Positions 27,637 to 44,311 of a DNA stretch of 64,000 nt are shown in pieces. The translations under genes and the position numbers were made by a program. How positions within the stretch are numbered: position 1 is the first letter of the stretch; each line of letters begins with the position of its first letter. The notes under the pieces are model-generated. The model was not told the DNA's origin. It saw nothing but the letters and a program-made list of their open reading frames with translations, and made no database searches. Source of the DNA: a bacterium (lineage in GTDB: Bacteria > UBP14 > UBA6098); assembly GCA_023145965.1 (NCBI GenBank), contig JAGLDC010000007.1, positions 5,574 to 69,573 on the forward strand, in the 5' to 3' direction.

Positions 27637-27660
27637 TATAACACCGTTAAAGTATAGAAT

Positions 27661-27699: not shown

Positions 27700-27734
27700 A
27701 TAAAATGATGCGTTGATTCTTTCCTTAAAAAAGA

Positions 27735-27761
27735 AAAATATTTATTGACAGAATTAAAGCC
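27735..27761 (+). promoter_or_regulatory. Candidate sigma70 promoter TTGACA-N15-TATAGA upstream of the MEMO-AMMECR1 gene
   Basis: TTGACA at 27735-27740 and TATAGA at 27756-27761, in a 230-nt AT-rich intergenic region. Confidence 0.35.
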
Positions 27762-27864
27762 AATATATAGATTAAAAAGATTATACAGAAGTTGTGAGAT
27801 TGGAAGTTAATACTTTTATTTACTTTGGAGGCATGTAGAGAATAATTGCGACTAATTAGTTAGT

Positions 27865-29382
27865 TTGACCAGCAAGCAAAGGGAGCGCATGAAAAGCAGG
27901 GGAGCCAATAATCGCTTCCATAGGATGTCGAGGCTGGTAAGTTATGGGGTTGCAGTATTCCTCTTGACTCTACCCGCTAAAGTCGCTTTTTCTTTTGAAA
28001 ATGTGCGACCTTGTTGTTGTGCCGGTTATCAATACCCAACTCAACAATCGGAACTTTATTCTCAGGTAGAGGCCTTTCTAAAGCTCTATCCTACCGAATC
28101 CCAATTTAGCAGTATTCAGGCCATCATCGCTCCACAGGCGCCTTATGTATATATCGGCCCTATTCTAGGTGCTGCCTATTCGAATCTGATAAATAAGAAT
28201 TTTGATAGAATTATTATTCTCGGATATGACCCGACAGCAATAGTGCCGACTTTGTATATCGGTGCAAAGATAGCCACGCCCTTGGGACAATTGCGTTCTG
28301 ATGATGTGCTCGCTTCTCGATTAATCGATGAATCCAACATCAAATTCGAAATAGTCGATGCGGAATATCCCCTTCCCGGATCCATAGAGGCCCAATTGCC
28401 ATTTTTGCAATATCTCTATGGTGAAAGACCACTGCTTGCGATAGGATTGGGAGGACAAACTTCTCAAGAGGCTATTAAATTGGGTAATTCGATCTCAGAG
28501 ATTGTGGGCGATAGTAGAACTCTAATTATTGGTGTGTCGAATCTCTCTCAATATTATGATTCTGGTTCTGGAGAGGGAATGGATAGACTTCTTATAGATA
28601 GGTTAAAAGGGTTTGAGTTAGAAAAAATGGGCATCGAATTCGAACAGGGTAGGATACAAGCGGAAAGTCCTGCCGTTCTCATTGCTACCTTGCAAATTGC
28701 TCAAGAAAACGAAGCGGATTATATCGAAATACTACGCTATGCAAATTCGGCTGTTTTAAGCGGAGATCAGCAATCGACAGTTGGTTACCTCACTGCTGCT
28801 ATTGGAAATAAAAAACCTTCTACAGGCGAGATTGAGTGTTTTTCCACCGACGAGGAGAAATATCTTCTTAATTTAGCACGAATGGCGATTAAAGATGTGT
28901 TGGCAATTCCTCGAGAACCCGAAATATCCCAACAGAAGCCAACTGATAATGTCCACCCAGATGGTATTTATCTTACAATCGATTATCAAGGCAAAATCAG
29001 AGGAGGATGTAGCCTTCTTTTTTCCGGTCAACCAATCGACGATTTAATCTCAAGTGCTGCACAATCGGCAGCTTTTAATGATCCCAGGTTCAATCCTATT
29101 ACTTTTGAAGAATTAAATGATCTTAATATAACTTTGCATATGCTCTTTAATGCTCGAAGAATAAATTCTCCCTCTAATTTCGATCCAAATAAAGACGCGA
29201 TTTTTATCAGCAAAGGAAGTTATTCGGCTCTAGTTTTTCCGGGAGAACTTAATTTATTGCTCAAAAAGGAAGAGATTCTCGGTAGAGCTTGTATTAATGC
29301 TGGCCTGCTGTCGAATTGTTGGCGTCAAAACGAAACAAGTGTTTGGTCTTTTGATATCCAGATTGTAAAGGAGGAAAGGTGA
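27865..29382 (+). CDS. MEMO1-family (AmmeMemoRadiSam protein B-like) and AMMECR1 (protein A-like) fusion with an N-terminal basic/hydrophobic anchor
   Basis: VRPCCCAGYQYPTQQSELYSQVEAFL aligns to the Memo N-terminal signature (RKPAVAGQFYPGDPEELRKQ). The C-terminal 180 aa (LNLARMAIKDVL..GCSLLFSGQPIDDLISSAAQSAAFNDPRFNPI) is an AMMECR1 domain. A 46-aa N-terminal extension has a Lys/Arg-rich start then LVSYGVAVFLLTLPAKVAF. Confidence 0.7.
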   Translation: MTSKQRERMKSRGANNRFHRMSRLVSYGVAVFLLTLPAKVAFSFENVRPCCCAGYQYPTQQSELYSQVEAFLKLYPTESQFSSIQAIIAPQAPYVYIGPILGAAYSNLINKNFDRIIILGYDPTAIVPTLYIGAKIATPLGQLRSDDVLASRLIDESNIKFEIVDAEYPLPGSIEAQLPFLQYLYGERPLLAIGLGGQTSQEAIKLGNSISEIVGDSRTLIIGVSNLSQYYDSGSGEGMDRLLIDRLKGFELEKMGIEFEQGRIQAESPAVLIATLQIAQENEADYIEILRYANSAVLSGDQQSTVGYLTAAIGNKKPSTGEIECFSTDEEKYLLNLARMAIKDVLAIPREPEISQQKPTDNVHPDGIYLTIDYQGKIRGGCSLLFSGQPIDDLISSAAQSAAFNDPRFNPITFEELNDLNITLHMLFNARRINSPSNFDPNKDAIFISKGSYSALVFPGELNLLLKKEEILGRACINAGLLSNCWRQNETSVWSFDIQIVKEER

Positions 29383-30698
29383 ACAGGCCTATTCCCAGAA
29401 GGTTTAGGGGGGAACCGGAGATAGAAAGGAAACGGAATAGGAGTTTCTCGCTTATAGATTTTTTAAAAGGGTTCAGGTTGCCGGGTTTATTTATTCTAAT
29501 TGGTATTTTAACAGTAGCAATTTTCCATTTCCTTGGGGGCGAGACTCAAGCAAAACCAATTACTCCGGAAATTCAGTTATCCTCTCTCGATGTAAAATGC
29601 AGGCTTTGTGGTGAGATCAAGCGGGACGAGTCACTTTATATCTCTCTTACAAATGCAGGTATGACTCCGCGAATAGTATATGATATCAATTGCGCTTTCG
29701 ATGGAGTGTTCGATCCCAAAAAAATAATGCCCGGAGATAGATATACCATAGATACCGATAATGAGGGCAAACTGGTCGAGTTCGAACTGGAGCGTTCTCC
29801 ATGGGAGCATTATAGAATTAAACGCCAATGTGATACACTTCTGGGCGTTAAGGATACAATCCCTTTAACTTATGTTATCAAGGCTGCAAAAGGTGAAGTC
29901 AGCAATACTCTTTGGGAATCCATGGTTAATAAAGGTATTCCTGCTGAAGTTATTCTTAGGTTCACCGATATCCTTTCTTTTAATGTTGATTTTCTCACTG
30001 AAACCCGTGATGGCCAGCGCTTTGCGCTTCTTTATGAAGAATATATATTTCATGGTGATGTTATAAAGGTAGGGCGAGTTGTGGCCGCCGAATATTGGAT
30101 TTCAGATACAAGTTATGGCGGGATTTATTACATGGACCCAGACAGTGTCTCGGGATATTATACACTGAGTGGCAAAAACACTAAGAAGGCGCTTTTAAAG
30201 ACACCGCTTACTTACAGACGAATATCGAGTTATTTTTCAAAGAGCCGTTTTCATCCGATTTTAAAAATCTATCGGCCGCATCTCGGTGTTGACTATGCTG
30301 CTCCATCTGGAACGCCAGTTTCTGCCTCGGGTTCCGGCGTGGTAACTTTCGCTGGTTGGAAGGGTGGTTATGGCAATTTTATACAGATTAAGCACGAAGG
30401 TAACATCGTGACTATGTATGGTCACCTTAAGGGATTCGCAGGTGGAATAAAAAAGGGTGTCCGAGTGAAACAAGGACAACTTATCGGTTATGTCGGGACT
30501 ACGGGACTTTCTACCGGGCCACATCTAGATTACAGGGTTAAAGTTAGAGGAGATTTTGTTAATCCCTTGCGCTATGCCTTCCCCGATGGCCCGCCTGTTA
30601 AAAATAAGTATATAAGTGATTTCAAGGAAAAGGCAGTGGATTATATTGGTCTTCTTGAAGCACTAACAGAAAATAATTTCGCTGTAAGGACTCAATGA
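29379..30698 (+). CDS. M23 family (LytM-type) peptidoglycan endopeptidase with N-terminal TM and an OapA/Csd3-like domain
   Basis: HLGVDYAAPSGTPVSASGSGVVTFAGW..GHL..GPHLDYRV are the HxxxD and HxH zinc motifs of M23. GTG start overlapping the upstream stop (GTGA). Confidence 0.85.
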   Translation: MNRPIPRRFRGEPEIERKRNRSFSLIDFLKGFRLPGLFILIGILTVAIFHFLGGETQAKPITPEIQLSSLDVKCRLCGEIKRDESLYISLTNAGMTPRIVYDINCAFDGVFDPKKIMPGDRYTIDTDNEGKLVEFELERSPWEHYRIKRQCDTLLGVKDTIPLTYVIKAAKGEVSNTLWESMVNKGIPAEVILRFTDILSFNVDFLTETRDGQRFALLYEEYIFHGDVIKVGRVVAAEYWISDTSYGGIYYMDPDSVSGYYTLSGKNTKKALLKTPLTYRRISSYFSKSRFHPILKIYRPHLGVDYAAPSGTPVSASGSGVVTFAGWKGGYGNFIQIKHEGNIVTMYGHLKGFAGGIKKGVRVKQGQLIGYVGTTGLSTGPHLDYRVKVRGDFVNPLRYAFPDGPPVKNKYISDFKEKAVDYIGLLEALTENNFAVRTQ

Positions 30699-30846: not shown

Positions 30847-33800
30847 ATGGAATTTAACGCAAGAATAACGAGTGTCGCTATTGTATGCGTATTGCTTTTA
30901 GGTTCGGGCGTTCTTTTTGCTCAACCTACGGAACCACTTTGCGCAGATTTAGTGACAACCGGTTACGGCCTTATTGGTGATACCCTCGAAGGCGATTTGG
31001 TGCTTTCAGGATTCGTTAAAGGGCACAGTGTTTCGCTTGAAGTGATGCCGATGTGTGTTTCTCCAACGCGCCAATACCGTTTTTTCCGCACACCACTGGG
31101 AGCTTCGGTGCCTGATCTACAGACAGATTGGATGCCGATGGCATACACCAATATGGATGGTGGTGGTGACAGCGAAGTATTCAAATACTATGCCGCCGTG
31201 ACCGACGGTGATACAGTGACGTATTCCAATCCTGACGAGGATCCTGCAATGGACCTCTGGCTTATGCACGATTGGTATCGTCCTGACCGTATCGAGGGGA
31301 TTTCGACTTACTATTATCCGAGCCCCACGCGCATTCGTATCAACTGGTATAAAGGCACTGACAGCGCTTCTGGAGTTTATAAATATTATATTTATCGAGC
31401 TCCAAGTGGCCTAGGATATACACTCGAGTATATCGATCCTACCGAAACTCCTATCGATTCGGTTCTAGATGATGGTCGTGCTTGGTATGATTGGTCGGAT
31501 TATGAAGTTACTCCGGATGAATGTTACTGGTATGTTATTGTCCCGATGGACAAAGCTGGATGGATACGCAGGGATGGCAATGATATTTTCCGTCGTTGCG
31601 CCGCAGTTTCCGGTTTTGGATTCCCGCCTTGCGCTCAACTTCAGCCGCTAGACAGATATCATGTCGGTGGTGGTGTGACAATTCGCGTTAATCTCGATGC
31701 TTGCCCCGGCGACCCCGACGAGGTAGTTCAATATCGGTTCCGCAAGTATGGTGTCTTTATTGATTCGGTTTCCGGCGATCCCGATATGTATATCATGGAT
31801 GAAACGGACTGGACGGATACACCGTTCTACTTCTTCTCGACGATGGAGTGTTCGACATACACATTTAGTGCACAGGCGAGATACCTCGGAGGAACGACAA
31901 GTCCTTGGTCTCACCTTATACCGACCTATCCACTTACCACAAACGATCCCACGCCTCCGGGGTGCCCGGATGAAATGTTCGCGCATTCGTATGGCGAGGA
32001 TGGTATATATGTTCATTTCGAGCAAGATCCGGGGGACGATTGTGGAAGTGGAATCCTCGGTTATCACCTTTTCCGTTTCCCTGCCGATTCGATCAGCGAT
32101 CATCTTCCACCGGACTCCAGCGATATTGCTGATTATGTGCTCTGGGAATATTATGTGAACGAAGAGGGGATTTATACATTCCAGGATGATGGCCCGACCG
32201 ACCCGGTTATTGATCTTATAGATAATGTCACATATTATTATGTAGTATGTCCTTATGATTCTGCTGGCTGGACAAATTGGCTTGATTGTGGGGATCTTCA
32301 GATAGATACCGCAACTGTTGATAAGGGCGTTGCCGCGCCAATGGCAAATAGGCTTCCGGCATATGCTTGCGATGGGGAGATTTATGTTGAATTCGTAGAT
32401 ACAACCCGTTGTGATGCCACCGAGGTCGAGATACAATGGTCGGCGGAACCGGAATTTGGCGGCGCGACATTCGTCGGCGTTGGCCCGATACCATTACACG
32501 GTGATACCGCGATCGGCGGTTTCTTCGATTTCACGAACCATGACGACGGTATCTGCACTAACTGGGATACGCTACAAGTCAATATCAGTGGTCTTTATGA
32601 AACACAGTGGTTCTTCCGCGCGCGTTTCTACGATATTCACAGCAACGTTTCCGAGTGGAGCAATATTTCTATAACACGCGTTGATAATACTCCGCCAACG
32701 ACAACGAGCATTATTAATGTTCAGTCTTTCTCGGATAGCGTTAATACTGTCGATATTCTTTTGAACTGGGATGAAAGTGATTTCAACGATGCTGATGGAA
32801 TTGGTATCGATTCGGTAAAAGTCTATCGTTCAGCAATGGCAGGCGATTTAGGAACCGTAATTGCCACAGTTTCCAAATTTGATAACAAGTTCGTCGATTA
32901 CGATCCTGTTCCGACGAACAACTGGCACGATAATGTTTATCGAGTGGTGCCTTATGATTATTGCGGACATATGAACACCGAGGGCGGCCAAGGTTGTTTT
33001 GCAGCACTTGGACAGCATCCGCCGGCAGTCCCGCGTATCGACACGGTTCTTGTTAGTCACTATCTCGATTCCTTCACTATAGTATGGTCGGATACCGGCA
33101 TAAGCCCGCTTACGACGAAATATGTTCTTCGCCACGGTGGAACCGAAAGCTGGCTTTGGATCGGCGACACAATTATCGCCCCCAATACTCACCTCGGCAC
33201 GGTGCCTTCGCATCGCTACACCTTCCCAATAGAGGAACTTTTCGGTGGCCCGAGGCATTATTTCATGATGTATGCCCTTGATGGTGAATCCCCGGCTAAC
33301 CAGAGCGGTTGGTCAGAGGTTTTTGCTTTCGATCTTCCTGAGGCGTTGACCGTCACGGATACTATTCATATTCGCGCTGGATGGAACTTTATCAGTCTTC
33401 CGGTTATGCCAGCCAATAATGAGGCTAATGTCATATTCCCCGGTGGACTTGATTATTATGAATGGAATCCAACGACCTCGATATATGATCCGATTACTGT
33501 TATGCAACCGGGTAAAGCCTATTGGGTGCTTATGTCATCCACAGCGGATTATCCGATTACAGGTATTCCTGTGGTCAGAGTCGAGGAGACTGAAATTGGC
33601 CCTGGATGGTGGAGTATTGGAACTCCTTATGATTCTACTGTTGCAATGCTTGGGAGCGGTTTTACCTGGGACGGAACCGGTTGGGCACGAGCCTACGGTT
33701 ACGATGGTGAAACACCTTATTATACGACAACCCATCTGAATGGTGGAGAGGCGTATTGGCTTCTTCTCAGCGGAACAGGGGATTTTTATTCCGAAGCTGG

Positions 33801-34464
33801 AATGGCTAAAGGGATAGTCGATGATCCGGTTATCGATTGGAACATAAACATCGATATAGATGGCAGTCCCATCGAACTGGCATATTCGACTCACGCCGAA
33901 AGCGGAATCGATGCGGCAGATATTGTAATGCCGCCTGCGCCGCCATCGGGTGCCTTCAGCCCATGTTTCGTTGACGAATCTGGCTATCGTTACTTGCGCG
34001 AGGTAAGGCCGGATGGTGTATGGAATATCTCGGCGCCATATGGCTCTATCATTAGCTGGAACGCAAAGGCGCTTCCTTCGGTTGAACTTGAGATTGTTAC
34101 CGATTTTGGGACGTTTGATATGCACAAGGTTGAAAGCATAGAATTCCTTGGGACAGCGAAAGTTGTTACAAAGGGCGTTCTTCCGACCGAGTTTACTCTT
34201 GGTCAGAATGTTCCAAATCCATTCAATGCTACATCTACGGTGCCGTTCAGCGTTCCGGTGGATTCAAGAGTGTCCATTAAGATATACGACATCAATGGCC
34301 ACACGATTTCGACCCTCGTCGAGAGCTATGTCGAGGTTGGAAGCCATCGTGTTGTTTGGGATGGTTTGGACGATCTCGGACGATCTGTTCCTTGTGGAAT
34401 TTACCTTTGTAGGATGGAAGCGGGGAGCTTTGCCGAGACAAGGCGAATGCTTCTAGTGAAATAG
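30847..34464 (+). CDS. Giant secreted surface protein (1205 aa) with a T9SS C-terminal sorting domain
   Basis: Signal peptide MEFNARITSVAIVCVLLLGSGVLFAQ. Aromatic/Asp-rich beta-sandwich-like repeats. C-terminus QNVPNPFNATSTVPFSVPVDSRVSIKIYDINGHTISTLVE..HRVVWDGLDDLGRSVPCGIYLCRMEAG matches the type-A T9SS CTD. Confidence 0.75.
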   Translation: MEFNARITSVAIVCVLLLGSGVLFAQPTEPLCADLVTTGYGLIGDTLEGDLVLSGFVKGHSVSLEVMPMCVSPTRQYRFFRTPLGASVPDLQTDWMPMAYTNMDGGGDSEVFKYYAAVTDGDTVTYSNPDEDPAMDLWLMHDWYRPDRIEGISTYYYPSPTRIRINWYKGTDSASGVYKYYIYRAPSGLGYTLEYIDPTETPIDSVLDDGRAWYDWSDYEVTPDECYWYVIVPMDKAGWIRRDGNDIFRRCAAVSGFGFPPCAQLQPLDRYHVGGGVTIRVNLDACPGDPDEVVQYRFRKYGVFIDSVSGDPDMYIMDETDWTDTPFYFFSTMECSTYTFSAQARYLGGTTSPWSHLIPTYPLTTNDPTPPGCPDEMFAHSYGEDGIYVHFEQDPGDDCGSGILGYHLFRFPADSISDHLPPDSSDIADYVLWEYYVNEEGIYTFQDDGPTDPVIDLIDNVTYYYVVCPYDSAGWTNWLDCGDLQIDTATVDKGVAAPMANRLPAYACDGEIYVEFVDTTRCDATEVEIQWSAEPEFGGATFVGVGPIPLHGDTAIGGFFDFTNHDDGICTNWDTLQVNISGLYETQWFFRARFYDIHSNVSEWSNISITRVDNTPPTTTSIINVQSFSDSVNTVDILLNWDESDFNDADGIGIDSVKVYRSAMAGDLGTVIATVSKFDNKFVDYDPVPTNNWHDNVYRVVPYDYCGHMNTEGGQGCFAALGQHPPAVPRIDTVLVSHYLDSFTIVWSDTGISPLTTKYVLRHGGTESWLWIGDTIIAPNTHLGTVPSHRYTFPIEELFGGPRHYFMMYALDGESPANQSGWSEVFAFDLPEALTVTDTIHIRAGWNFISLPVMPANNEANVIFPGGLDYYEWNPTTSIYDPITVMQPGKAYWVLMSSTADYPITGIPVVRVEETEIGPGWWSIGTPYDSTVAMLGSGFTWDGTGWARAYGYDGETPYYTTTHLNGGEAYWLLLSGTGDFYSEAGMAKGIVDDPVIDWNINIDIDGSPIELAYSTHAESGIDAADIVMPPAPPSGAFSPCFVDESGYRYLREVRPDGVWNISAPYGSIISWNAKALPSVELEIVTDFGTFDMHKVESIEFLGTAKVVTKGVLPTEFTLGQNVPNPFNATSTVPFSVPVDSRVSIKIYDINGHTISTLVESYVEVGSHRVVWDGLDDLGRSVPCGIYLCRMEAGSFAETRRMLLVK

Positions 34465-34490
34465 TATCAACCAACTGGATATGAGTAGTT

Positions 34491-37400
34491 ATGATAAAAA
34501 TAAACATAAAGGATAAGGAGCGAGCCTTGAGAGTAAAGACTATGCCTATTATACTCGGTATTCTGGCTCTCGGGCTTTTTGGAAGCCTGTTAGCGCAATC
34601 AGCGCCTGTAGTTGAGCCGGAGCCGGCATATACTGCGGGACATGTCAACCCTTTGCTGTGGTCCGAACCTACAAGCTATAGTGTTACAATTTCAGCTTGG
34701 GAGATTTGGGTTGATACAGCATCTACCGGATTTCCTGATTGGCCGGATTCGGCCTATGAGGAGCTTTTGGGACCAGATAGAATCTCTATCGGCCCGATAC
34801 CGGTGACAGATGCTGCTGATTTCGGTTCTACCTACGGAAGCGAATATGCTTATCCGATCGGTAGCGGTGTTTATGGCGATTCCGACGATCCTCTTACTTC
34901 AGGATTGCGGTATTGTTATAAAGTGCGTTATCGTTGGTACACACCGCCTTCAACTTACGGGTTCTCCGATTGGTCTGAGACACATTGTAGTGTTCAGGAT
35001 GCCGCACCACCTACTGTCGAAATTGATTCTTTACCGGATTGGTGGAATACCGATGAGGTATCGATTCATTATATAGCCAATGATGCCCTCGTTGGTGAAG
35101 TCGATAGTGTGGTATTATATTACAGAATGCCGCCTTCGACCGATTGGATTAGGGTGTTTGCAGAAGCACCGCCACCACCTGGTTACGACGACTATATGGA
35201 ATTTGATATTACAGGAACCGGCGATGGTGAATACGAGTTTTTCATCGGCGCATGGGATGCCTTGGGCAATGGAACCATTCCACTGGGAACGCTTCATGCC
35301 CCAATGGCTGACACAAGGGTTGATGATACTGATCCGACAAGTGCCATTATAGAAACGGAAGATTTACCGCTTTATTATACAGGTTGGCCCGAAGGAATTA
35401 ATCTATTTTTCTCAGCCTCTGATTCATATAGCGGTTTAACAGCAGTCTATCTTGATACCGATTACGGCGATACTCCGCCGTTACCTTTCGATAGTCTATT
35501 TTTCCCGGCTGTGGAAAGTGTCACGCGCGATACCTTCGTATTTTCACGCACCGAGAATGGCGAGTGGAACATTCGTGCTAGAGCTGTCGATTTGGCCGGT
35601 AATCATGAATCAGAAACGACCTGGGATTGGACTTTTTATGTCGATACTCAGGAGCCTGAGTTTACTTCGACAACGGTTATAGACTCGACAACGGTTTCCC
35701 ATCGCTATGATGTTCCTGCAATGCATGGCTGGACAAACTCTCGGGCCGTCAAAGTAACGCCCGAAAGCGCTATCGACCCATTGGTTGATGGTTATGCCAG
35801 CGGCTTGGATACCGTTTCGGTTGCCTCGAATTCGGCATTCACCGAGGATTATATGGCTTTTGTGGCAGGAACACCGCCCTATATTTGGATTACTTCGGAT
35901 GACGACGGCGCAAAGGAAGCATATGTCCATCTCAAGGACAGAGCTACTAATATCAGCGAGTCGAGGTTTGGGGTAATCGAACTCGATACCGAGGTTCCGG
36001 TTCTTTCGGCATGCACACTTTGGAACCATGTAACGCCGGATACCTACACCGACACAACGGTTTCGCTCACTGTCGATGTTACCGCTAATCTCGATCCTTA
36101 TTACGGCTCGGCCAGCGGAATATACTTCGCGCAGAATGCTTCCAATCTTAATTCCATTGATACTGACGATTGGCAGGCGGTAGATGGCGATTATACATTT
36201 ACCTTCGATGGCTTCTCATCGGGCGAGTGGATGACGCTTTATGTTGTAGTTCGCGATAGTGCTGGTAACGTTAGCGAAGCTGCGATAGATAGCATAAGGT
36301 ATATTCATGGAAATAAGTGGGTCGAAATATTCAATATTCGCGATATCGACGGCCCCGATGTTACAGGAAGATACACCGATACAACCGAAATATCTATTGA
36401 GATAGCATACGGTAATGGAATAGATACATTATTGGTTTGGGATGGAAGCTCCATGTTGGGATTACCCGATACTGTTTTCCCTGTGGACGATCCTACCGGT
36501 GATTCGGATACGATAACCATAATTGGCAAACTTGAAAGGACAGACGGTTGGCATACATTGTCCGTTCGCGGAAAGACCGATTATGATATTATCCTCACAG
36601 ATCCGGATACTGCTTCGATAGAGCTTGATATTCAGCATCCGACGGTTCCAGATTTTCTCGTGTTAGACCTTACGATACACACAGAACCTTCAGGTCCTGC
36701 AGATGTTGCCGATACAGGTTGGACGAACGATGCAGATGTTAAAGGCATGTTCACTGGCAGCTACGACACAGGTGGCGAATCCAGTGGAACCGGCCTTTAT
36801 AGGTATAAGGTATCCATCGATACTCTAGTTCTCGGCACTGATGCATTCCCGGGGACTTATCAAGTTGACTTTGCGCTTCCAGTCGCTGATGGCCCTAGTG
36901 ATGTTATCGGTGATGTTCAGGATTCCAGCGGGAATTGGGCCTCTGAAGATGCCGACCCGATTTTCAACATTAAACTCGATACACATATTCCGACTATAGA
37001 CTCGATCCAGCTTTTAGATGCTACAAGTCTTTCACCGGATTATACCGACGATCCAAGTATCGTTGTTAAGATTTTCGGCGATGATGATCCATACACGCCG
37101 GCTTATGCATCGATTTTCGAGGATGGAACGGATTATCCAAATATCGTCCGCTCGATACGCCGTTCATTCAGTTCGGGGACATTAAGTTATATGCTTACAG
37201 ATACGCTCACAGGCGGTATTAAGACGGTTTATGTTGCTCTTATGGATAGAGCTGGGAATATCTCGGCGATTTCTTCGGCCACAATCGTATATAATAAGGA
37301 AATCGTTCTCGACATGTCGCTTTACGACTGCGATAGCGAACCAGAGAATAATGAATGCACGAATGACCCAACTGTTGGTGTGCATTTGTTTGCTTATGGA

Positions 37401-39278
37401 ACTCCGGCTGCAGCTTATATTCTTTCCGAGACACCGGGCGGTTTGCCCGAACCTGACGACCCGCGTTGGATAGACTATCCCGAGAGCGGTGATACTTTAT
37501 TTACCATGGTATTGGATGCCACCGAAGGCGAAAAAGTTATTTATGGATGGCTTCTTTCCGAGAGCTATATAGTCAGTGAGATGGACGAAGACACTATCTA
37601 TCTTGACATGACAGCACCGGAACAGAATGAGGGGTTCTTCGTATGGGATACCACTTCGGGAGATAACTTCCCCACCATATTTAAAGCGGCTATGGGCTGG
37701 TCGAACGAGAGTTATATATTTGCGCAGGTGCCTTTCTCCTATGATGAGGGCTGTGGAACCGATAGTATAAAGTTCTCTGGTGGTATCGACCTTGAGCTCT
37801 GGAGAGACATCGACCATGTTATTGATATCGAGGAACATAGTATTTCATTGGACTTCAGAACGGATAGTCTTCCATTGGTTATCGACACAGACTCCGAGGG
37901 TAGAAAGCAGATAGTTTCGCGTCTTCGCGACTCCGCAGGTAATTGGGGCAATGTTTTCGATCCATTGAGTCAGATAACCATACACGGCGGTTACGATGTT
38001 ACCGCACCTGATTTCGATTTTCTCGATGTTTTCAGTGAAGAGGTTACGGATAGCGTTACTTCGGTGCTTCCGAACTCTCTTCCAATAAAATTCATGGACG
38101 ACCCCGCACCGGGCTTTCTCTGGAAAGTTTGCTGGCAGATCGACTCCGATCCAACCAGGATAAGTTGCACGACTTACGATTCAACCTGGGATACGCCTGC
38201 CGATAGTATTTTCTATGCGGCTTTCCCGGGCGATTTAACAAGTGGTCTTGTTCCCGATCAGCATTACGATCTCAGTATAGTAGTGATCGATTCGGCGGGT
38301 AATCCAAGCGATCTTAAAACAGCGGATCTATTAATAATACCGGATTCAATCGAGTTCGCTTTCGAGGTTGTCGATACTAATGATCTCGAAGATAGCGATT
38401 ACTGTGGCGAAGTAACTGTCGCCACGCATGTTATGATGGATAATCCTCCGGATTATATGAGATTCGGCGAAAGCGCAAGCGGTTTAGGTAGCTGGATGGA
38501 TTATTCCGAATATGGGGAGTTCACGTTTAGCTCCAGCTTGAACCAGATGAAATATGTCTATGCTCAGATTCGTTATGGAACACAGGAATCAAAGATTGCG
38601 GTAGATTCAATCATTCTCGATACTCAGAATCCAAGCGTTTCTAATATCGAAGCCTTCGATATATCGACTGGCGATAGATATTATTCGGACGATGTGGAAA
38701 TTGGATTTAAGGCCTATGGTGCCAGCGATCCTAATCCGGGTATTGTGGGTGCTATGCTCATTGCTGAGGATGCAGATTTTACACTGAATGTTCAGAAGTG
38801 TGAACTCGATCTTACTGATACAACTTGCACTTATACTGCTTCAGAACTTGCAGATATAGATGATGATGCCTCAGCTTCCGGTGAAATTCGACAGGATGCT
38901 AGAGTATTTTGGGTGAAGTTGCTCGACCGCGCCGAGAACCCGGCTTCGATTAAAATGCCCGCTATTGTTATAGATTTAGATGAAGAGCTTGTGACCAACT
39001 TCCCAAATCCTTTCGATCCGACGGAAGAACCCACTATTGTTAGGGTCAAGGGGATTTCGATAGGTGGATCGGTAGAGGTTAGTATCTATGATAATTATGG
39101 TAACTTGGTATGGAATACGACAGTCTCCGCTCTCGGTGGAAGTAAAACAGTTGATGTTTTGTGGAACGGCAAGAACGGAAAGGGTGATGTTGTTGCCGGA
39201 GGAGTTTATGTGGCAATTGTAGAGGTCGAAGGAGAAATCATAAAACGCAAAATAGCTGTATGGAAGGGGGGTGAGTAG
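34491..39278 (+). CDS. Giant secreted surface protein (1595 aa) with a T9SS C-terminal sorting (FlgD-Ig-like) domain
   Basis: N-terminal signal (MIKINIKDKERALRVKTMPIILGILALGLFGSLLAQS). Many Ig/cadherin-like Asp/Thr-rich segments. C-terminus TNFPNPFDPTEEPTIVRVKGISIGGSVEVSIYDNYGNLVWNTTV..VLWNGKNGKGDVVAGGVYVAIVEVEG fits the CTD pattern. Confidence 0.75.
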   Translation: MIKINIKDKERALRVKTMPIILGILALGLFGSLLAQSAPVVEPEPAYTAGHVNPLLWSEPTSYSVTISAWEIWVDTASTGFPDWPDSAYEELLGPDRISIGPIPVTDAADFGSTYGSEYAYPIGSGVYGDSDDPLTSGLRYCYKVRYRWYTPPSTYGFSDWSETHCSVQDAAPPTVEIDSLPDWWNTDEVSIHYIANDALVGEVDSVVLYYRMPPSTDWIRVFAEAPPPPGYDDYMEFDITGTGDGEYEFFIGAWDALGNGTIPLGTLHAPMADTRVDDTDPTSAIIETEDLPLYYTGWPEGINLFFSASDSYSGLTAVYLDTDYGDTPPLPFDSLFFPAVESVTRDTFVFSRTENGEWNIRARAVDLAGNHESETTWDWTFYVDTQEPEFTSTTVIDSTTVSHRYDVPAMHGWTNSRAVKVTPESAIDPLVDGYASGLDTVSVASNSAFTEDYMAFVAGTPPYIWITSDDDGAKEAYVHLKDRATNISESRFGVIELDTEVPVLSACTLWNHVTPDTYTDTTVSLTVDVTANLDPYYGSASGIYFAQNASNLNSIDTDDWQAVDGDYTFTFDGFSSGEWMTLYVVVRDSAGNVSEAAIDSIRYIHGNKWVEIFNIRDIDGPDVTGRYTDTTEISIEIAYGNGIDTLLVWDGSSMLGLPDTVFPVDDPTGDSDTITIIGKLERTDGWHTLSVRGKTDYDIILTDPDTASIELDIQHPTVPDFLVLDLTIHTEPSGPADVADTGWTNDADVKGMFTGSYDTGGESSGTGLYRYKVSIDTLVLGTDAFPGTYQVDFALPVADGPSDVIGDVQDSSGNWASEDADPIFNIKLDTHIPTIDSIQLLDATSLSPDYTDDPSIVVKIFGDDDPYTPAYASIFEDGTDYPNIVRSIRRSFSSGTLSYMLTDTLTGGIKTVYVALMDRAGNISAISSATIVYNKEIVLDMSLYDCDSEPENNECTNDPTVGVHLFAYGTPAAAYILSETPGGLPEPDDPRWIDYPESGDTLFTMVLDATEGEKVIYGWLLSESYIVSEMDEDTIYLDMTAPEQNEGFFVWDTTSGDNFPTIFKAAMGWSNESYIFAQVPFSYDEGCGTDSIKFSGGIDLELWRDIDHVIDIEEHSISLDFRTDSLPLVIDTDSEGRKQIVSRLRDSAGNWGNVFDPLSQITIHGGYDVTAPDFDFLDVFSEEVTDSVTSVLPNSLPIKFMDDPAPGFLWKVCWQIDSDPTRISCTTYDSTWDTPADSIFYAAFPGDLTSGLVPDQHYDLSIVVIDSAGNPSDLKTADLLIIPDSIEFAFEVVDTNDLEDSDYCGEVTVATHVMMDNPPDYMRFGESASGLGSWMDYSEYGEFTFSSSLNQMKYVYAQIRYGTQESKIAVDSIILDTQNPSVSNIEAFDISTGDRYYSDDVEIGFKAYGASDPNPGIVGAMLIAEDADFTLNVQKCELDLTDTTCTYTASELADIDDDASASGEIRQDARVFWVKLLDRAENPASIKMPAIVIDLDEELVTNFPNPFDPTEEPTIVRVKGISIGGSVEVSIYDNYGNLVWNTTVSALGGSKTVDVLWNGKNGKGDVVAGGVYVAIVEVEGEIIKRKIAVWKGGE

Positions 39279-39280
39279 TC

Positions 39281-41095
39281 ATGAGTAGAAAATTTAAACT
39301 CGACTATCTCTGGATTATCCCGCTTTTCGCATTGGTTTCTTTCTCAGCTTTCGCTCAGGATGGCAGTGCCGGTCAAGCCGGGGAGCTTCTCCGTAGTGGA
39401 CTCGATGCAAGGAGTTTCTCTATGGGCAGAGCATATACTGTAATGCCCACAGGGGGCGATGCCCTCGTTTGGAATCCCGCCGGATTAGGAAAACTCGGAC
39501 GCTGGGAATTTCGTTTCATGCATGCTCAAGGCTATGTCGATAGCAGAACCGAATACGGAAGTTTCGCTATTCCTATCGGGGATCTCGGTGGTTTTGGTAT
39601 AGGCTTTGCCAATGAAGGAGTGACCTCTATAGAGGGCCGCGATGCTTTCAACCGTTCTACCGAAGAAATTTCTTGGGGAGAATCAGCCGCTCTGTTTGGT
39701 TGGGGTCGGGCGTTCATGCAGAACAAATTGTATGGTGGTCTTACCGCTAAATATGTGATGCAGAATATGGGAGACGAATCCGCAAATGGTTTTGGCGGCG
39801 TCGATGTCGGCTTTCTGTCTAAAGAATTCATGTTTAAATATCGCGTTGGTTTGACGCTTCAGAACCTCGGTGCAGCCGAGGTAGCTGGTGATGCCTATCC
39901 GATGACCGTTCGAGCTGGCGTCGGTTGGAGGGTTCTTAATGACCTTTATGTTACAGCCGATGGTGAGATGGTTTCTGGAAGGGATATTTCACCGCGAGTC
40001 GGCGCTGAATATCATCTTGGATGGGTAGCAATCCGCGCAGGATACGATATAATGAAGCCAGAGCTTACATTCGGACTTGGGTTGATGATCGACAATATAG
40101 CCGGTAGAGTTGCAGGGACTTATCCGAGATTAGATTATGCCGGAGGAGCATTAGCGCCGATAGGCAATAATTTTGCGAGAGTTTCTTTGACTCTTATGGG
40201 CGAGGAAATGAGCAAACTTGAGGATATTGAAGGTGATCCGTGTTCACAGTTATCGACCATTGAACCGCATATGAGTAAGCGCGGTTTTGTTGGAGCGAAA
40301 GCAAACTTGATCTACGGAGAATGCCGTTTCAAGGCTGAAGCTCTTGAAGCACCATTTGACATTGAACCTCGTTTTGGCGAAATTCATCCCTTCTTCAATT
40401 CTGCCTATTATGGTAAGTATGGTTCTAACTGGATGACCGAGATAGTTACGGATACTCTAGCTCAGACTGTATTTAGCCAGAAAACACATTATATGTATGC
40501 TGAAACGCGTATGGCTAAAGGCATAGATGAAGAAGCCAAAATCCTTCTTGATCAATTGATTTCGGCAGGTGGCGACAGCGCTCAATATGACCTTCGCCTT
40601 CAATATGATCTAGCTTTGATCAATGAAGAATTAGGCGAAACTGACGCGGCACTTAAGGACTACGAGTCTATCGCAGGGAAGAATGTAGATGACCCTGTTA
40701 AGGTTCTCGCTCTTTATCGTGCAGCAAATATACTCAGAGATAGAGATAAGACGAAGGCAATTAATTACCTAGAGACTTTAGTAAGTAAATATGGATCAGG
40801 CTTTTATGATGAAAGCGGTGAAAGAATCGGCTATCCCATGTTCCCCAAGTATATGGATAACTCGATTGCCGATGACGCTACGATCCTGTTAGCCGATATT
40901 ATTTTCTCCACTGCAAGCGGAGACCCAACCGTGCTTCGTAAAGCATTGGGACTTTATCTAGATGTTTTAATTTACTATCCGGATATGCAAGCTTCGATTC
41001 GTCGTGAAGCTGCGGAAAAAGCCGCTATATGTTTCGAAGAACTTGGAGATTCCGCGAGCGCAGCTTCGATGCGCTCGAAAGCGGGTGAGATTTAA
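39281..41095 (+). CDS. Putative outer-membrane beta-barrel (PorV/PorQ/PorP-type, FadL-like) fused to a C-terminal TPR-like domain
   Basis: Signal peptide ..LFALVSFSAFAQ. N-terminal motif DARSFSMGRAYTVMPTGGDALVWNPAGLG resembles the conserved start of T9SS-associated FadL-like barrels. Gly/aromatic-rich alternating strands follow to ~aa 330. The C-terminal 250 aa is helical repeats (TPR-like). Confidence 0.4.
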   Translation: MSRKFKLDYLWIIPLFALVSFSAFAQDGSAGQAGELLRSGLDARSFSMGRAYTVMPTGGDALVWNPAGLGKLGRWEFRFMHAQGYVDSRTEYGSFAIPIGDLGGFGIGFANEGVTSIEGRDAFNRSTEEISWGESAALFGWGRAFMQNKLYGGLTAKYVMQNMGDESANGFGGVDVGFLSKEFMFKYRVGLTLQNLGAAEVAGDAYPMTVRAGVGWRVLNDLYVTADGEMVSGRDISPRVGAEYHLGWVAIRAGYDIMKPELTFGLGLMIDNIAGRVAGTYPRLDYAGGALAPIGNNFARVSLTLMGEEMSKLEDIEGDPCSQLSTIEPHMSKRGFVGAKANLIYGECRFKAEALEAPFDIEPRFGEIHPFFNSAYYGKYGSNWMTEIVTDTLAQTVFSQKTHYMYAETRMAKGIDEEAKILLDQLISAGGDSAQYDLRLQYDLALINEELGETDAALKDYESIAGKNVDDPVKVLALYRAANILRDRDKTKAINYLETLVSKYGSGFYDESGERIGYPMFPKYMDNSIADDATILLADIIFSTASGDPTVLRKALGLYLDVLIYYPDMQASIRREAAEKAAICFEELGDSASAASMRSKAGEI

Positions 41096-41148
41096 TTATG
41101 AAAAACCAAAAAACCAATATAACTAATATGTTTCCCAAGGAGGAACAA

Positions 41149-42516
41149 ATGAAGTTTAACCGCATCGCAAACGGCGTGATGCTGGCAGTGCTTTTCGGAA
41201 TTATTGCAATTTGTGGAACCCTAGCGGCGCAAGCGCCAGCTGAACTGGATTCTATTTGGTTGCATACTTCCGATGCCAAGTGGGAGAAAACCGACGAAGG
41301 TTTTAATCTCACGATGTCATGGGAGCTTTACATCAAGAAAGCTCAAGATAAAAAAGGCTCTAAATTTTCAGGTGAATGGACTAAACTTTCTCCTGAGAAT
41401 GTAGAGTATACTTATCGCGTAGAAGTAGCTACTGATTCGGTTTTCAGCCAAATCGATAAGACTCAGGAAACTAATGAGGCTTCGCTAGTAATCCGCGATC
41501 TAAACTTTGACAAGTTTTATACTTCCAGAGTGCGTATTGTAGATCCTCCGGTCAATTATCGAGACGATTTCGCTGCCGGAACGATTTATAAACATGAAAA
41601 GGAAACCGGCGGAAAAAGCGAAGAACGAAAAGGCGTTATTGGTTTCTTACTTTTCGCCTTCGATAAGGGCGGATGGCAAACCTACGTTATTATTGCTCTC
41701 GCTTTATTGGGAATCCTGGGAGTTATGCCGATAACATGGTATAGACTTCGTTTGGCGAATATCTTCCCGCCGAATAAACCCGGGTTCTTATATTCGGCTT
41801 TGCCTTTCGATAGAACCGGGAAATGCGATCATCTATCGCCTAAGGGCAATGTCTTTGTTCGCGAAGTGGCAAAATATTGGTCGCGGGCTATGGCGGCTAT
41901 GGCATCCGATCCCTCGAATTGGGAGAGCACCGATGCTTTTATTAAAGCTACGGCTCAAGAACAAGAGGAAGTTAAGAAGCGCCGTTGGATCGAAGAGGGT
42001 CTTCCTGCGATAGAGCAGGCTATCGATGTCTGTAAAAATGGCGTTCCCGGTATCAAACTGAAGAAAAAACCGCTCGACTACCCGTTCCCGCGCGTTCTTC
42101 TCGCGGCGCTGGAAAATCAGAGGATTAACCGCAATAACTGGTGGGCGAGTCAGGAAATGGACAGAGCCGTTGAGAACACCTCGTTTAAAGAAATCGACGA
42201 TCTTAAGGGATGGAGTGTCACGGCATTCTGGGCTTTAGGTTCGGTTGAGCCTATGCTCGGTTTGTTCGGCACTGTTGAAGGAATTCAGAAGGCCTTCATG
42301 AAGATCCAGGAGCAATTAAAGGAAAATCCGGATGCGCCTATGGCCGATACGATTGAAAACCTCGCAGGAGGTATTCATCAAGCGCTTATTACCACGTTCT
42401 TCGGATTGCTCTTCGGTATTCCGTTCATGATGATTTACTATTATTATCGTGGAAAAGCTGATTGGGTTTTCTCCAAATGGGAGGAAATCGTTATCGACCT
42501 ATTAAACAGGGCCTAA
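41149..42516 (+). CDS. exbB: MotA/TolQ/ExbB-family proton channel protein with a ~200-aa N-terminal extracytoplasmic domain
   Basis: C-terminal part has three TM helices and the family motif MLGLFGTVEGIQKAF. Strong SD AAGGAGG lies 5 nt before the ATG at 41149. The N-terminal signal peptide is followed by a beta-rich domain with no recognisable family. Confidence 0.75.
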   Translation: MKFNRIANGVMLAVLFGIIAICGTLAAQAPAELDSIWLHTSDAKWEKTDEGFNLTMSWELYIKKAQDKKGSKFSGEWTKLSPENVEYTYRVEVATDSVFSQIDKTQETNEASLVIRDLNFDKFYTSRVRIVDPPVNYRDDFAAGTIYKHEKETGGKSEERKGVIGFLLFAFDKGGWQTYVIIALALLGILGVMPITWYRLRLANIFPPNKPGFLYSALPFDRTGKCDHLSPKGNVFVREVAKYWSRAMAAMASDPSNWESTDAFIKATAQEQEEVKKRRWIEEGLPAIEQAIDVCKNGVPGIKLKKKPLDYPFPRVLLAALENQRINRNNWWASQEMDRAVENTSFKEIDDLKGWSVTAFWALGSVEPMLGLFGTVEGIQKAFMKIQEQLKENPDAPMADTIENLAGGIHQALITTFFGLLFGIPFMMIYYYYRGKADWVFSKWEEIVIDLLNRA

Positions 42517-42532
42517 CCCAAGGAGGGGCAGA

Positions 42533-43102
42533 ATGCCCAGAAAACAAACAGAGGCTGTACCTTCTGCTGACTGGACCTCCTTAATCGATATCATCTTCCA
42601 GTTGCTCATCTTCTTCATGGTGACGCTGGCTATGGGGACAGTCGAGCAACAGGCTAGTGCCCAGATGGAAGGTGAAATGGATGAGAGCCTACCCGAGTTG
42701 CCCGGAATGAGTAATCTCGGTGAAGCCTTAGAAATCGGCCCCGGCGTGATACTTATTCATGCCGCTTACGATGAAGATAATGAAGTTGCAGGCGATATAG
42801 TAACATATCTCTTTACGAACGAGATCTCGAATATTGAAGAGGCGAAGAAAGATTCAACTCATAGCGCGGGTCCGTTCTCTTGGGATAAAGCCTATAAGAA
42901 GCTGCAAAAGCAGCTTACTTTTGCTCGTGATTACAACGAAAACCTTCCGAGGGTCGAGATGAGGGCTTTTAAGGGAACTCCTTACGGTAATGTTCTCGAT
43001 ATTATGAACCTATGCTATCACGACGAACCCGAAATGAGAATCGATCAGGTATATTTTAGGTTTGCTAGATTAGCTAGAGAGCAATTGGGAGGTGGAAGTT
43101 AG
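42533..43102 (+). CDS. exbD: ExbD/TolR-family biopolymer transport protein (paralogue 1)
   Basis: N-terminal DWTSLIDIIFQLLIFFMVT is the ExbD/TolR TM signature. SD AAGGAGGGG. Confidence 0.75.
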   Translation: MPRKQTEAVPSADWTSLIDIIFQLLIFFMVTLAMGTVEQQASAQMEGEMDESLPELPGMSNLGEALEIGPGVILIHAAYDEDNEVAGDIVTYLFTNEISNIEEAKKDSTHSAGPFSWDKAYKKLQKQLTFARDYNENLPRVEMRAFKGTPYGNVLDIMNLCYHDEPEMRIDQVYFRFARLAREQLGGGS

Positions 43103-43663
43103 ATGCAGAGAAGATATCTTAATCTTGAAAGCGCCGACTGGACGCCTTTAATCGATATTATCTTCCAGTTGATGATCTTCTTCCTGGTAACGATGAGCGT
43201 TCTTCCGGCGGTGAAATCTGCACCGCAGGTCGAGGGGAATATGTCGCTTCCGACACCGAATCAAGGAAGTTCTGAAGTCTCACACCTTATTCAGATATTG
43301 AAGGTCCCTTTCAAATCCGACATGTATGGTTATCTTGTTCTTGACGGCACTCCGCAATCTGCCGAATTCTATAAGGATGTTGACAGAAACCGTCAGTTTT
43401 TAGGTGACCAATATGCATTGGAAAGTGAAATTGTTCTTGGAACAAATATGGGGCTTTGGTTTAACGAGACAAGTCTTAAAGCGAAGTTTCAAGAAGCCTT
43501 CAGTCAACAGGATGTTAAGGTGATTATTAGAGCTGCCAGGAATGTCCCATATGGAGAGGTAGTAAAGGTTCATTCGATATTGTTTAATATCGGTATATCC
43601 AAGATCGCTTGGTTGGATGGCAAGATTGGAACTCTTAAGGCTGACATCAAGGAGGTGAGGTAG
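43103..43663 (+). CDS. exbD: ExbD/TolR-family biopolymer transport protein (paralogue 2)
   Basis: DWTPLIDIIFQLMIFFLVT. The start directly abuts the previous stop. SD GGAGGTGG. Confidence 0.75.
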   Translation: MQRRYLNLESADWTPLIDIIFQLMIFFLVTMSVLPAVKSAPQVEGNMSLPTPNQGSSEVSHLIQILKVPFKSDMYGYLVLDGTPQSAEFYKDVDRNRQFLGDQYALESEIVLGTNMGLWFNETSLKAKFQEAFSQQDVKVIIRAARNVPYGEVVKVHSILFNIGISKIAWLDGKIGTLKADIKEVR

Positions 43664-44230
43664 ATGAGCAAACTCAAACCTACCTATAAAGTTGTCGTTT
43701 TAAGCTTCGTCGTTATTTTATTGGCGATGTCTTTCGGTTGTAGAAACGCTGTCGAAGGCGAGAGCGGTTTCGAAACTGAAGATGGACCGAAGATAATCTT
43801 CCGTGGCGGTTATGGTAATATTGTTATCAAGTATCAACCACCGCCTGAACCAATATTCCAAGTTGGTAATGCAACTCGATATCTCGATTTCAATGAGTTA
43901 CAAAAGAAATTTGGTATCGTCGAGCAACCTTTAATTCTTTCTTATACTGTGAAAACTTCTGTGATGAGTGCGAGTATAGAAAGCAATACGCTTGATCCAG
44001 CATTCGATAACGAAATTCTTGCGGTTATCAAGAGCTGGACCTATACCAGATGGGGCTTTGGTAGATTAAGGATCAAGATTGAAATGGCGAGAAGCCGAGT
44101 TACCGTAGATATGAGTGGAGCTAATCTTGCGGATAGAGTTCCTAATATGAGCATGCCACGCTTTGGCGAAGCCAAAGATATGGTCGCTGCATACGGTTTC
44201 GGAAAGGTTTCTCAGGCAGGTATAGATTAA
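43664..44230 (+). CDS. Lipoprotein / TonB-like energy-transducer candidate (by synteny after exbB-exbD-exbD)
   Basis: Signal peptide ending SFGC (lipobox-like). Short Pro-rich QPPPEPIFQ. C-terminal beta region. The position matches tonB in Bacteroidetes-type exbB-exbD-exbD-tonB loci. Sequence evidence is weak. Confidence 0.3.
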   Translation: MSKLKPTYKVVVLSFVVILLAMSFGCRNAVEGESGFETEDGPKIIFRGGYGNIVIKYQPPPEPIFQVGNATRYLDFNELQKKFGIVEQPLILSYTVKTSVMSASIESNTLDPAFDNEILAVIKSWTYTRWGFGRLRIKIEMARSRVTVDMSGANLADRVPNMSMPRFGEAKDMVAAYGFGKVSQAGID

Positions 44231-44237
44231 TAACAAA

Positions 44238-44270
44238 ACGCCCGTCTTGTGGCGGGCGTATTTTGACATT
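44238..44270 (+). terminator. Rho-independent terminator closing the cargo/Exb unit
   Basis: ACGCCCG (44238-44244) pairs with CGGGCGT (44253-44259), 8-nt loop, then ATTTTGACATTTTTT. Confidence 0.6.
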
Positions 44271-44311
44271 TTTTCGTTATTTAAAGTTAAAACATAAACA
44301 AAGAGGATGAA

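Follow-up and report, generated by a model that had tools for sequence, protein, structure and literature searches.

A degenerate Memo-AMMECR1 fusion encoded in tandem with an M23 endopeptidase and preceded by a conserved leader RNA in uncultured bacteria

Memo and AMMECR1, two domains of obscure biochemistry, are ancient and have been connected to disease in humans. In bacteria, to our knowledge, they are known only as parts of a three-gene system with a radical S-adenosylmethionine (SAM) enzyme. What, then, is the function of a gene that encodes both domains in a single chain next to a gene for a peptidoglycan endopeptidase? This question is raised by a locus in a stretch of 64,000 nucleotides (hereafter, the window; positions 5,574 to 69,573 of contig JAGLDC010000007.1, assembly GCA_023145965.1) from a bacterium of the UBP14 lineage (UBA6098), in which a Memo-AMMECR1 fusion gene is directly followed by a gene for an endopeptidase of the M23 family. 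The overall reading that we favor, with modest confidence, is that the fusion is an exported pseudoenzyme that serves as a noncatalytic partner of the M23 endopeptidase. We are considerably more confident of a narrower statement, namely, that the fusion is jointly a noncanonical derivative devoid of the conserved catalytic set of its family, a protein destined for a site beyond the cytoplasm, and one whose expression is stoichiometric with that of the M23 protein.

The open reading frame (ORF) at 27865-29382 on the forward strand encodes 505 amino acids when read from a TTG codon, which is the length given in the initial annotation of this DNA. An in-frame ATG at 27889, which is preceded by AGGGAG and agrees with both the NCBI protein (P0001) and the start position in the relatives, yields 497 amino acids and appears to be the likelier start. 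Thus, of the original description of components A and B fused in one 505-residue protein, the fusion stands, and the length is probably too great. Comparison with the domain profiles placed Memo (PF01875; 102.7 bits, cutoff 27) and AMMECR1 (PF01871; 83 bits, cutoff 25) in the same chain, at residues 52-311 and 336-500 of the 505-residue form, respectively, and the AMMECR1 half matched Protein Data Bank (PDB) entry 1vaj with an E value of 5e-16. Among the NCBIfam models, the fusion scored above the cutoff for the B component (TIGR04336; 134.8 bits versus 26) and below it for the A component (TIGR04335; 87.1 bits versus 99). The single-ORF fusion recurs in at least 17 independent assemblies, so the possibility that two separate genes had been joined by a frameshift artifact was not borne out.

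Mapping of the fusion onto human MEMO1 with phmmer showed that H49, G51, H81, H131, D189, H192, and C244 are replaced by Q, P, P, G, N, Q, and E, respectively; H49, H81, and C244, together with D189 and H192, are residues that, from MEMO1 structure work, we take to form the metal site. The AMMECR1 motif LRGC(I/M)G reads IRGGCS in the window fusion and RG[GAS]x in its relatives. The same losses run through a clade that consists of the window protein and 17 relatives (P0002-P0006, P0015-P0017, P0019, P0020, L025, L097, L098, L108, L122, L155, and P0290). In particular, H81, H131, H192, C244, G51, and the Cys of the AMMECR1 RGC motif are missing from 18 of 18 members, D189 is changed to Asn in 17 and to Glu in L097, and H49 is retained in P0005 alone. 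In contrast, these Memo residues and the RGC Cys are all intact in each of the approximately 75 canonical homologs, bacterial and archaeal, whether fused or unfused; 11 fused proteins among them were re-checked in detail, and LRGC[IM]G is present in all canonical fusions. A profile search against 1.84 billion representative proteins recovered the clade as 8 clusters scoring 415-875 bits, with the next match at no more than 285 bits, and a wider profile search added only one more degenerate member, P0290. The residues that are invariant specifically within the clade (Q59, P163, P181, N218, R466, and S475, with conservative variants at Y97, L170, and L219) include no new nucleophile or metal-ligand set. 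The clade is rare: among species-representative genomes, its carriers are UBP14 (UBA6098), 'Zixiibacteriota' metagenome-assembled genomes, and unclassified bacteria, every one of which belongs to uncultured candidate phyla. The NCBI name of the window protein, 'AmmeMemoRadiSam system protein B [bacterium]', overstates what the proteins of this clade are. The early suggestion that the locus points to an envelope role for the AmmeMemoRadiSam module as such had to be given up as well, given that the residue losses mark a catalytically dead derivative, not an active module.

That the fusion no longer has the Memo metal/active-site residues or the RGC Cys would explain why the TIGR04337 partner is missing. 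Consistent with the original observation that no AmmeMemo-type radical SAM gene lies nearby, a phmmer search of the 64-kb window with a genuine TIGR04337 protein (L007:4573-5691; 396.6 bits) as the probe found no match, and the radical SAM gene at 6689 is indeed from another family, of the B12-binding type (TIGR03960/TIGR03936; 629 bits), not TIGR04337. No TIGR04337-like gene was found within 6-10 kb of the clade members at approximately 17 loci, whereas such a gene adjoins 17 canonical loci. One could still view the fusion as a canonical component that works in trans with a TIGR04337 enzyme encoded elsewhere in the genome, considering that the DNA analyzed covers 64 kb of a 118.6-kb contig, that the NCBI name refers to the canonical system and that the TIGR04336 score exceeds the cutoff. 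However, all residues that are invariant in the canonical A and B proteins are gone, the TIGR04335 score falls short of its cutoff, and, within 6-10 kb, the flanks of the clade loci consistently differ from those of the canonical loci in the absence of the radical SAM gene, all of which makes this explanation highly unlikely.

Both folds appear to have outlived the catalytic residues. The AlphaFold2 model of the fusion (mean predicted local distance difference test [pLDDT] score of 85.5) begins with an N-terminal helix (residues 4-33) and continues through a floppy linker into two folded domains; in Foldseek comparisons, the Memo half matched MEMO1 (3bcz) with a TM-score of 0.79-0.80 at 22% identity and the AMMECR1 half matched the archaeal homologs 1vaj, 1zq7, and 1wsc with TM-scores of 0.55-0.70. 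The family motifs TPLG, SIExQLPF, and DPRF are still present in the fusion, 28 alignment columns are invariant across 12 clade members, and full-length ORFs of 473-500 amino acids persist at 22-57% identity. The fusion gene is also the fastest evolving in its neighborhood: between the window and L001, the fusion proteins are 57% identical, compared to 71% for M23, 72% for the first giant protein encoded downstream, 82% for IDH, and 89% for a PilT-like protein (65-89% for the neighbors overall), and in a deeper comparison, the fusion shows 28% identity versus 50-55% for M23. That the fusion outpaces its neighbors fits the loss of catalytic constraint with a structural or binding role kept. The rate of evolution and the lost catalytic residues could alternatively signify a decaying remnant, that is, a functionless pseudogene in progress, but this is barely credible in view of the intact ORFs in 18 lineages diverged down to 22% identity, the invariant columns, the confident predicted fold, and the conservation of both the coupling to M23 and the dedicated leader described below. 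To judge from sequence conservation and the modeled structure, the gene is not in decay. In the deep branches of the clade, in Zixibacteria and allies (L098:6534-7997, L097:318-1775, and L025:5956-7377), the AMMECR1 half is highly degenerate, with gene length and the place before the M23 gene kept; in L098, Pfam fails to detect AMMECR1, and DPRF is lost.

Where in the cell the fusion might act can be gauged from its N terminus. Five basic residues (+5) are followed by LVSYGVAVFLLTLPAKVAFSF, an uncharged stretch of 15-21 residues that is the sole hydrophobic segment of the protein and is modeled as part of the N-terminal helix, in agreement with the initial annotation, which had described a basic segment followed by a hydrophobic helix; the extension that they form, put at 46 residues in that annotation, amounts to 38 when counted from the ATG. 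Equivalent N-terminal segments are present in all clade members, with short classical signal peptides in the deep branches. The short hydrophobic region and the possible AFS/F cleavage site may point to a cleavable Sec signal, with a retained type II anchor as the other candidate, and the positive-inside rule, applied to the basic N terminus, would have the domains face outward. No twin-arginine translocation (Tat) motif of the form S/T-R-R-x-F-L-K is present in register in the fusion, where the sequence reads KSRGANNRF, and the possibility that the fusion is a Tat substrate was rejected for lack of twin arginine in register. We also rejected the tail 'SRGAxKRF' (M-x-S-R-G-A-x-K-R-F) as a sign of a retained cytoplasmic anchor, because the codon test detailed below assigns its conservation to the nucleotide level and the deep branches lack the tail.

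The triple Cys close to this segment had been described as CCCAG in place of a highly conserved AVAG. In the alignment, CCC is no insertion but takes the place of PAV, three poorly conserved residues ahead of the conserved AG, and the triplet is not kept in the relatives: it is found in the window genome only, with CC in six clade members, a single Cys in seven, and none in three (P0005, P0017, and L098). No lipobox ([LVI][ASTVI][GAS]C) precedes the Cys residues of the fusion, which follow R-P-x instead. CCC as a lipidation or catalytic site was discarded considering the missing lipobox, the confinement of the triplet to the window, and the three members without Cys. A broader proposal along these lines is that the fusion is a re-tooled enzyme with a remodeled site, for instance, one in which the N-terminal Cys cluster provides thiol chemistry, that works on a substrate in the envelope without the help of a radical SAM enzyme. 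The occurrence of one or two Cys at the RPxCC position in most members and the retention of both folds and of the motifs listed above would suit such an enzyme, but the Cys-free members, the lack of any clade-wide invariant nucleophile or metal ligand beyond residues shared with canonical proteins, an evolutionary rate above that of all neighbors, and an AMMECR1 half that is barely recognizable in L025, L097, and L098 render it rather improbable.

Neither the fusion nor the membrane/export segment is peculiar to this locus, contrary to the first impression that they are unusual, as both are common among the canonical homologs; in JGI annotation, B+A fusions already go by the name 'protein B/protein A'. 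Most canonical fusions carry an N-terminal hydrophobic segment or a lipobox, and the radical SAM enzymes adjoining the signal-bearing fusions have Tat signals, such as SRRDFIK, SRRNFIK, SRREFIS, TRREF, or KR variants (L007:4573-5691, L017:4106-5362, L020:4628-5860, L022:4633-5874, L023:4559-5812, L030:2493-3662 on the reverse strand, L034:6746-7885, and L047:2551-3708 on the reverse strand). Conversely, the signal-less fusions of Gastranaerophilales (L039, L041, and L044) are accompanied by radical SAM enzymes that likewise lack a signal. Because the signals of the canonical fusions and of their partner enzymes go together, export seems to be widespread and probably ancestral to the window protein, the exported canonical fusion being its likely ancestral state. 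In Ignavibacteria and Bacteroidales, to judge from these sequences, entire AmmeMemoRadiSam systems may reside in the periplasm, and the radical SAM enzymes with Tat signals point to an envelope substrate of these systems in several phyla. In L014 and L015, a gene with an M23 domain is located 2 kb away from a canonical fusion; it is EnvC-like, with a coiled coil and no orthologous N-domain, and was judged to be unrelated.

The gene that is invariably associated with the degenerate fusion encodes an M23 protein (107.6 bits, cutoff 28.7) that scores far below the equivalog cutoff for ShyC (223.8 versus 700). Its best PDB match has an E value of 5e-46, and the closest solved relatives are Neisseria NGO1686/NMB0315, Helicobacter pylori Csd3, and Vibrio ShyA. 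As originally reported, the stop codon of the fusion (TGA, 29380-82) overlaps the GTG start codon of the M23 gene (29379-81), with GGAGG just upstream, and the pair is present in every clade locus with enough flanking DNA. A 4-bp NTGA or 1-bp TAATG overlap was found at 13 of the 14 fusion-M23 junctions that were read directly, with a 3-nt gap in L093, and the gene calls in L097 and L098 give overlap or abutment. As a rule, such a stop/start overlap is seen between the genes of stoichiometric partners. The M23 protein contains the HxxxD (HLGVD) and YGHL motifs; at the HxH position, it has HLD (GPHLD). The second His of HxH in characterized M23 enzymes is a zinc ligand. This variant (GPHLDYRV, codons 30510-30533) marks an entire subfamily of M23 peptidases that resemble MepM and Csd3 (P0164-P0282, with identities as low as 38%; carriers include Zixibacteria, UBP14, and Aerophobetes), and the notion that HxD co-evolved with the dead fusion was dismissed because 30 of 30 sampled subfamily members carry HLD.

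The conservation extends beyond the pair. In all clade loci with enough flanking sequence, the gene order is fusion, M23, an approximately 1200-residue FlgD_ig protein with a type IX secretion system (T9SS) C-terminal domain, and an approximately 1590-residue protein. The upstream genes vary by lineage, including IDH in the window, NFACT in L095 and L098, QueA in L096, and a glycosidase in L025, so that the fusion gene marks the 5' boundary of the module. The earlier statement that the fusion heads a cargo/Exb unit is, hence, supported both by this constancy and by its position at the 5' end of a run of eleven co-directional genes in the window (27889-49241), which are separated by gaps of -4, 148, 26, 2, 2, 16, 0, 0, 81, and -23 nt. 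Such an arrangement also allows for co-expression only, whereby the fusion and M23 share an operon for economy of regulation without interacting and the fusion serves the giant-protein/ExbBD apparatus, perhaps by assisting the approximately 1200-residue protein as a chaperone or adaptor. At every locus, the genes for the two giants are found with the same constancy as M23, and one leader and promoter head the unit; however, the stop/start overlap, usually a mark of stoichiometric partners, is specific to the fusion and M23, and a gap of 100-250 nt separates M23 from the giants. We regard co-expression without interaction as unlikely, if by no means negligible.

The region around the start codon of the fusion gene is under constraint at the RNA level. 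Across ten clade loci, conserved blocks occupy the 5' untranslated region and the first approximately 22 codons, and where two sequences share an amino acid, the same codon is used in 73.9% of pairs in codons 1-24 versus 36.4% in the rest of the gene, all other 24-codon windows having codon identities of 0.26-0.44. The codons for Ser3 (AGC), Arg4 (AGG), Gly5 (GGA), Arg9 (CGC), Phe10 (TTC), and Leu16 (CTG) are the same in every pair. The conserved N-terminal peptide can thus be attributed to the constraint on the leader RNA. In the predicted structure of the leader, GCGACU (27847-53) pairs with GGUUGC (27948-54) in helix P1, ACCAGC (27868-73) with GCUGGU (27933-38) in helix P2, and an anti-Shine-Dalgarno (SD) segment, CGCUUCC (27913-19), with the SD sequence GGGAGCG (27881-87) or, alternatively, with GGGGAGC (27899-905); the apical block, AGCAGGGGAGC at 27895-905, is invariant. 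This architecture appeared in independent minimum free energy folds of 9 out of 10 sequences, all with negative z scores (-1.3 to -4.7), the partner of the anti-SD segment being the SD in six sequences and the alternative GGGGAGC in four. For the window sequence, the fold of 27815-27945 gave z = -0.11, because this segment cuts off the 3' strand of P1, and refolding of 27843-27958 gave z = -1.29.

A covariance model of the leader yielded one match per UBP14-clade locus, whereas the rest of the window and the deep-branch and canonical loci gave none, and a pattern scan of metagenomes returned 67 matches, including 4 new true instances. No Rfam 15 family matched the leader; the best score, 30.7 bits versus a gathering threshold of 56, fell on an upstream terminator-like hairpin. 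A few changes appear to be compensatory, in that L093 has GCGAAUG/CGUUCGC, L005 has CCGAC/GUCGG, and at the foot of P1, U-A is exchanged for A-U, but formal tests on 10-13 sequences found no significant covariation: 66-69% of cells pair, the slid controls reach 33-46%, and among 500 shuffles, 30-96 do equally well. RNAalifold applied to MAFFT alignments recovered only the invariant apical hairpin, and realignment with the covariance model left the register of P2 and P3 unfixed. We hypothesize that the leader is a switch that sequesters the SD. The leader RNA is a candidate new cis-regulatory element and an example of RNA-level constraint mimicking a conserved peptide motif.

Taken together, these observations can be accommodated in a scenario in which the fusion descends from an exported AmmeMemoRadiSam form and has lost the radical SAM partner, the Memo site, and the AMMECR1 Cys but kept both folds. 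Through the overlapping stop and start codons, it would be made in fixed proportion with the membrane-anchored M23 enzyme of the MepM/Csd3 type, and the leader hairpin, by burying the ribosome-binding site and the start codon, would gate the expression of the pair. In concept like known regulators of wall hydrolases, the fusion would most plausibly act as a noncatalytic binding, targeting, or regulatory subunit of the endopeptidase, perhaps with affinity for the ancestral envelope substrate, a proposition to which we assign roughly an even chance or somewhat less. A plausible purpose would be to remodel the wall locally on behalf of the downstream-encoded giant surface proteins and ExbBD-like motor. 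We thus infer a periplasmic location, a physical complex with M23, a regulatory role, and a tie to the downstream apparatus. A more specific idea, which we consider doubtful, is that the dead module has become, by exaptation, a regulatory subunit that binds a ligand or substrate and belongs to an endopeptidase that opens the wall for the assembly of a giant-adhesin/PorV-like/ExbBD machine. If true, such an exaptation, along with the Tat-exported partners, would imply that the AmmeMemoRadiSam substrate in bacteria is an envelope molecule, either peptidoglycan-linked or lipid-linked.

Several considerations weigh against an exported pseudoenzyme partnered with M23. The status of the fusion as 'dead' is judged solely against the canonical residue set, in a family the biochemistry of which is itself obscure, and Cys residues near the mature N terminus, retained by most clade members and doubled in six, could serve some chemistry. 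The search for the radical SAM gene covered the 64-kb window and flanks of 6-10 kb only. The export of the protein is predicted from sequence heuristics, and the physical or functional interaction between the fusion and M23 is putative. Finally, the M23 partner, with an Asp where HxH has its second His, is itself of uncertain activity, although the variant is subfamily-wide. If an exported scaffold without catalytic residues is indeed tied to a wall endopeptidase, it constitutes a naturally occurring separation-of-function variant, one that might help to identify the molecule bound by the scaffold.

The features of the locus are collected in Table 1. The similarity of the two giant proteins to T9SS C-terminal domains is weak. 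Between them and the TolQ/ExbB and two TolR/ExbD genes, a 604-residue protein (39281-41095, forward strand) combines a barrel of the PorV/PorQ family (79.6 bits, cutoff 90) with C-terminal TPR repeats, and the ensemble looks like an unusual cluster of T9SS cargo plus motor. Another M23 gene (49246-50151, reverse strand), which is smaller and has the canonical motif HLHYE, is convergent with the end of the 11-gene unit. On the other side, just after IDH, an AT-rich inverted repeat at 27659-27702 (AGAGCAAAAAAGG...CCTTTTTTGCTCT) with only subthreshold Rfam matches resembles a terminator and parts the housekeeping operon from the module. Further upstream, a gene for a PilT-like T2SSE ATPase (23921-25114, forward strand) lies between the BCCP and biotin carboxylase (AccC) genes, an arrangement that is kept in L001 and L004 at 89% identity.

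Table 1. Features of the Memo-AMMECR1/M23 locus, in window coordinates
Feature	Position	Strand	Remarks
Promoter-like site	27745..27773	+	TTGACA, 17-nt spacer, TAGATT; 10/12 in consensus scan; TTGACA invariant in 10/10 aligned clade loci at the same relative position
Conserved RNA leader hairpin, ~115 nt	27843..27958	+	Encloses SD, AUG, and codons 1-23; synonymous-site conservation, folds, covariance model
Degenerate Memo-AMMECR1 fusion gene	27889..29382	+	497 aa (alternative TTG 27865, 505 aa); AlphaFold2 mean pLDDT 85.5
Predicted N-terminal export segment, aa 1-35	27889..27993	+	Hydrophobic stretch L16-F34 after a basic n-region (+5); signal peptidase may cleave at AFS/FE
CCC, Cys42-44 (TGT TGT TGT)	28012..28020	+	Aligns with canonical 'PAV' before conserved AG
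Memo domain, fold kept	28018..28797	+	Pfam 102.7 bits; H49>Q, G51>P, H81>P, H131>G, D189>N, H192>Q, C244>E; Foldseek TM-score 0.79-0.80 to 3bcz
AMMECR1 domain	28870..29364	+	Pfam 83 bits; LRGC(I/M)G Cys lost (IRGGCS), DPRF kept
M23 peptidoglycan endopeptidase gene (MepM/Csd3/ShyA-like)	29379..30698	+	439 aa; N-terminal transmembrane helix; motifs HLGVD, YGHL, GPHLD
Co-directional downstream unit	30847..49241	+	Two giants with T9SS-type C-terminal domains, PorV/PorQ-like barrel + TPR, TolQ/ExbB-like, two TolR/ExbD-like, 188-aa unknown, NHL-repeat, TPR protein

Searches of the literature for AmmeMemoRadiSam, or for AMMECR1 together with Memo, peptidoglycan, or isoprenoid, returned nothing relevant; a 2019 study by Burroughs et al. 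in J Biol Chem (294:10211), which reportedly deals with Memo-AMMECR1 systems and lies outside that search, may mention inactive versions. Relative to the searched literature, the degenerate M23-coupled clade and its leader RNA are new, whereas the domains, their fusion, and their export are known or ordinary.

Among known systems, the closest is AmmeMemoRadiSam itself (TIGR04335 for A, TIGR04336 for B, and TIGR04337), with which the window fusion shares homologous Memo and AMMECR1 domains in the B-then-A order, but it differs in that it has no radical SAM neighbor, the residues invariant in canonical members are all replaced, and its constant neighbor is an M23 peptidase. The exported canonical fusions of Ignavibacteria, Bacteroidales, and Cloacimonadia (L007, L017, L020-L023, L030, L034, and L047) likewise consist of B and A in one chain behind an N-terminal signal, lipobox, or transmembrane segment; unlike the window fusion, they keep H-G-H-H-D-H-C and LRGCIG, adjoin a TIGR04337 gene with SRRxF, and lack M23. 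Human MEMO1 (3bcz, 7l5c, and 7kq8) has the same fold as the Memo half, but its metal-site residues H49, H81, C244, D189, and H192 correspond to Q, P, E, N, and Q in the window. The M23 protein has the domain layout, HxxxD, and catalytic His of the DD-endopeptidases of the MepM/ShyA/Csd3/NGO1686 type (6muk, 3slu, 4rny, and 6u2a), with GPHLD in place of their GPHLH and scores far below the NCBIfam equivalog cutoffs; we know of no Memo-like partner of any characterized M23 DD-endopeptidase. As in leaders that sequester the SD, such as RNA thermometers and translational riboswitches, an anti-SD segment pairs with the SD in a long hairpin with an alternative pairing, but the window element reaches approximately 70 nt into the coding region and has no Rfam family. 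In concept, the closest parallel known to us is with EnvC, NlpD, and ActS, the dead LytM regulators, in which a periplasmic pseudoenzyme controls a peptidoglycan hydrolase. The analogy involves no homology and, in a sense, is inverted: in those regulators, a dead M23-fold domain activates amidases, whereas here, a dead Memo-AMMECR1 protein would accompany an apparently intact M23 enzyme.

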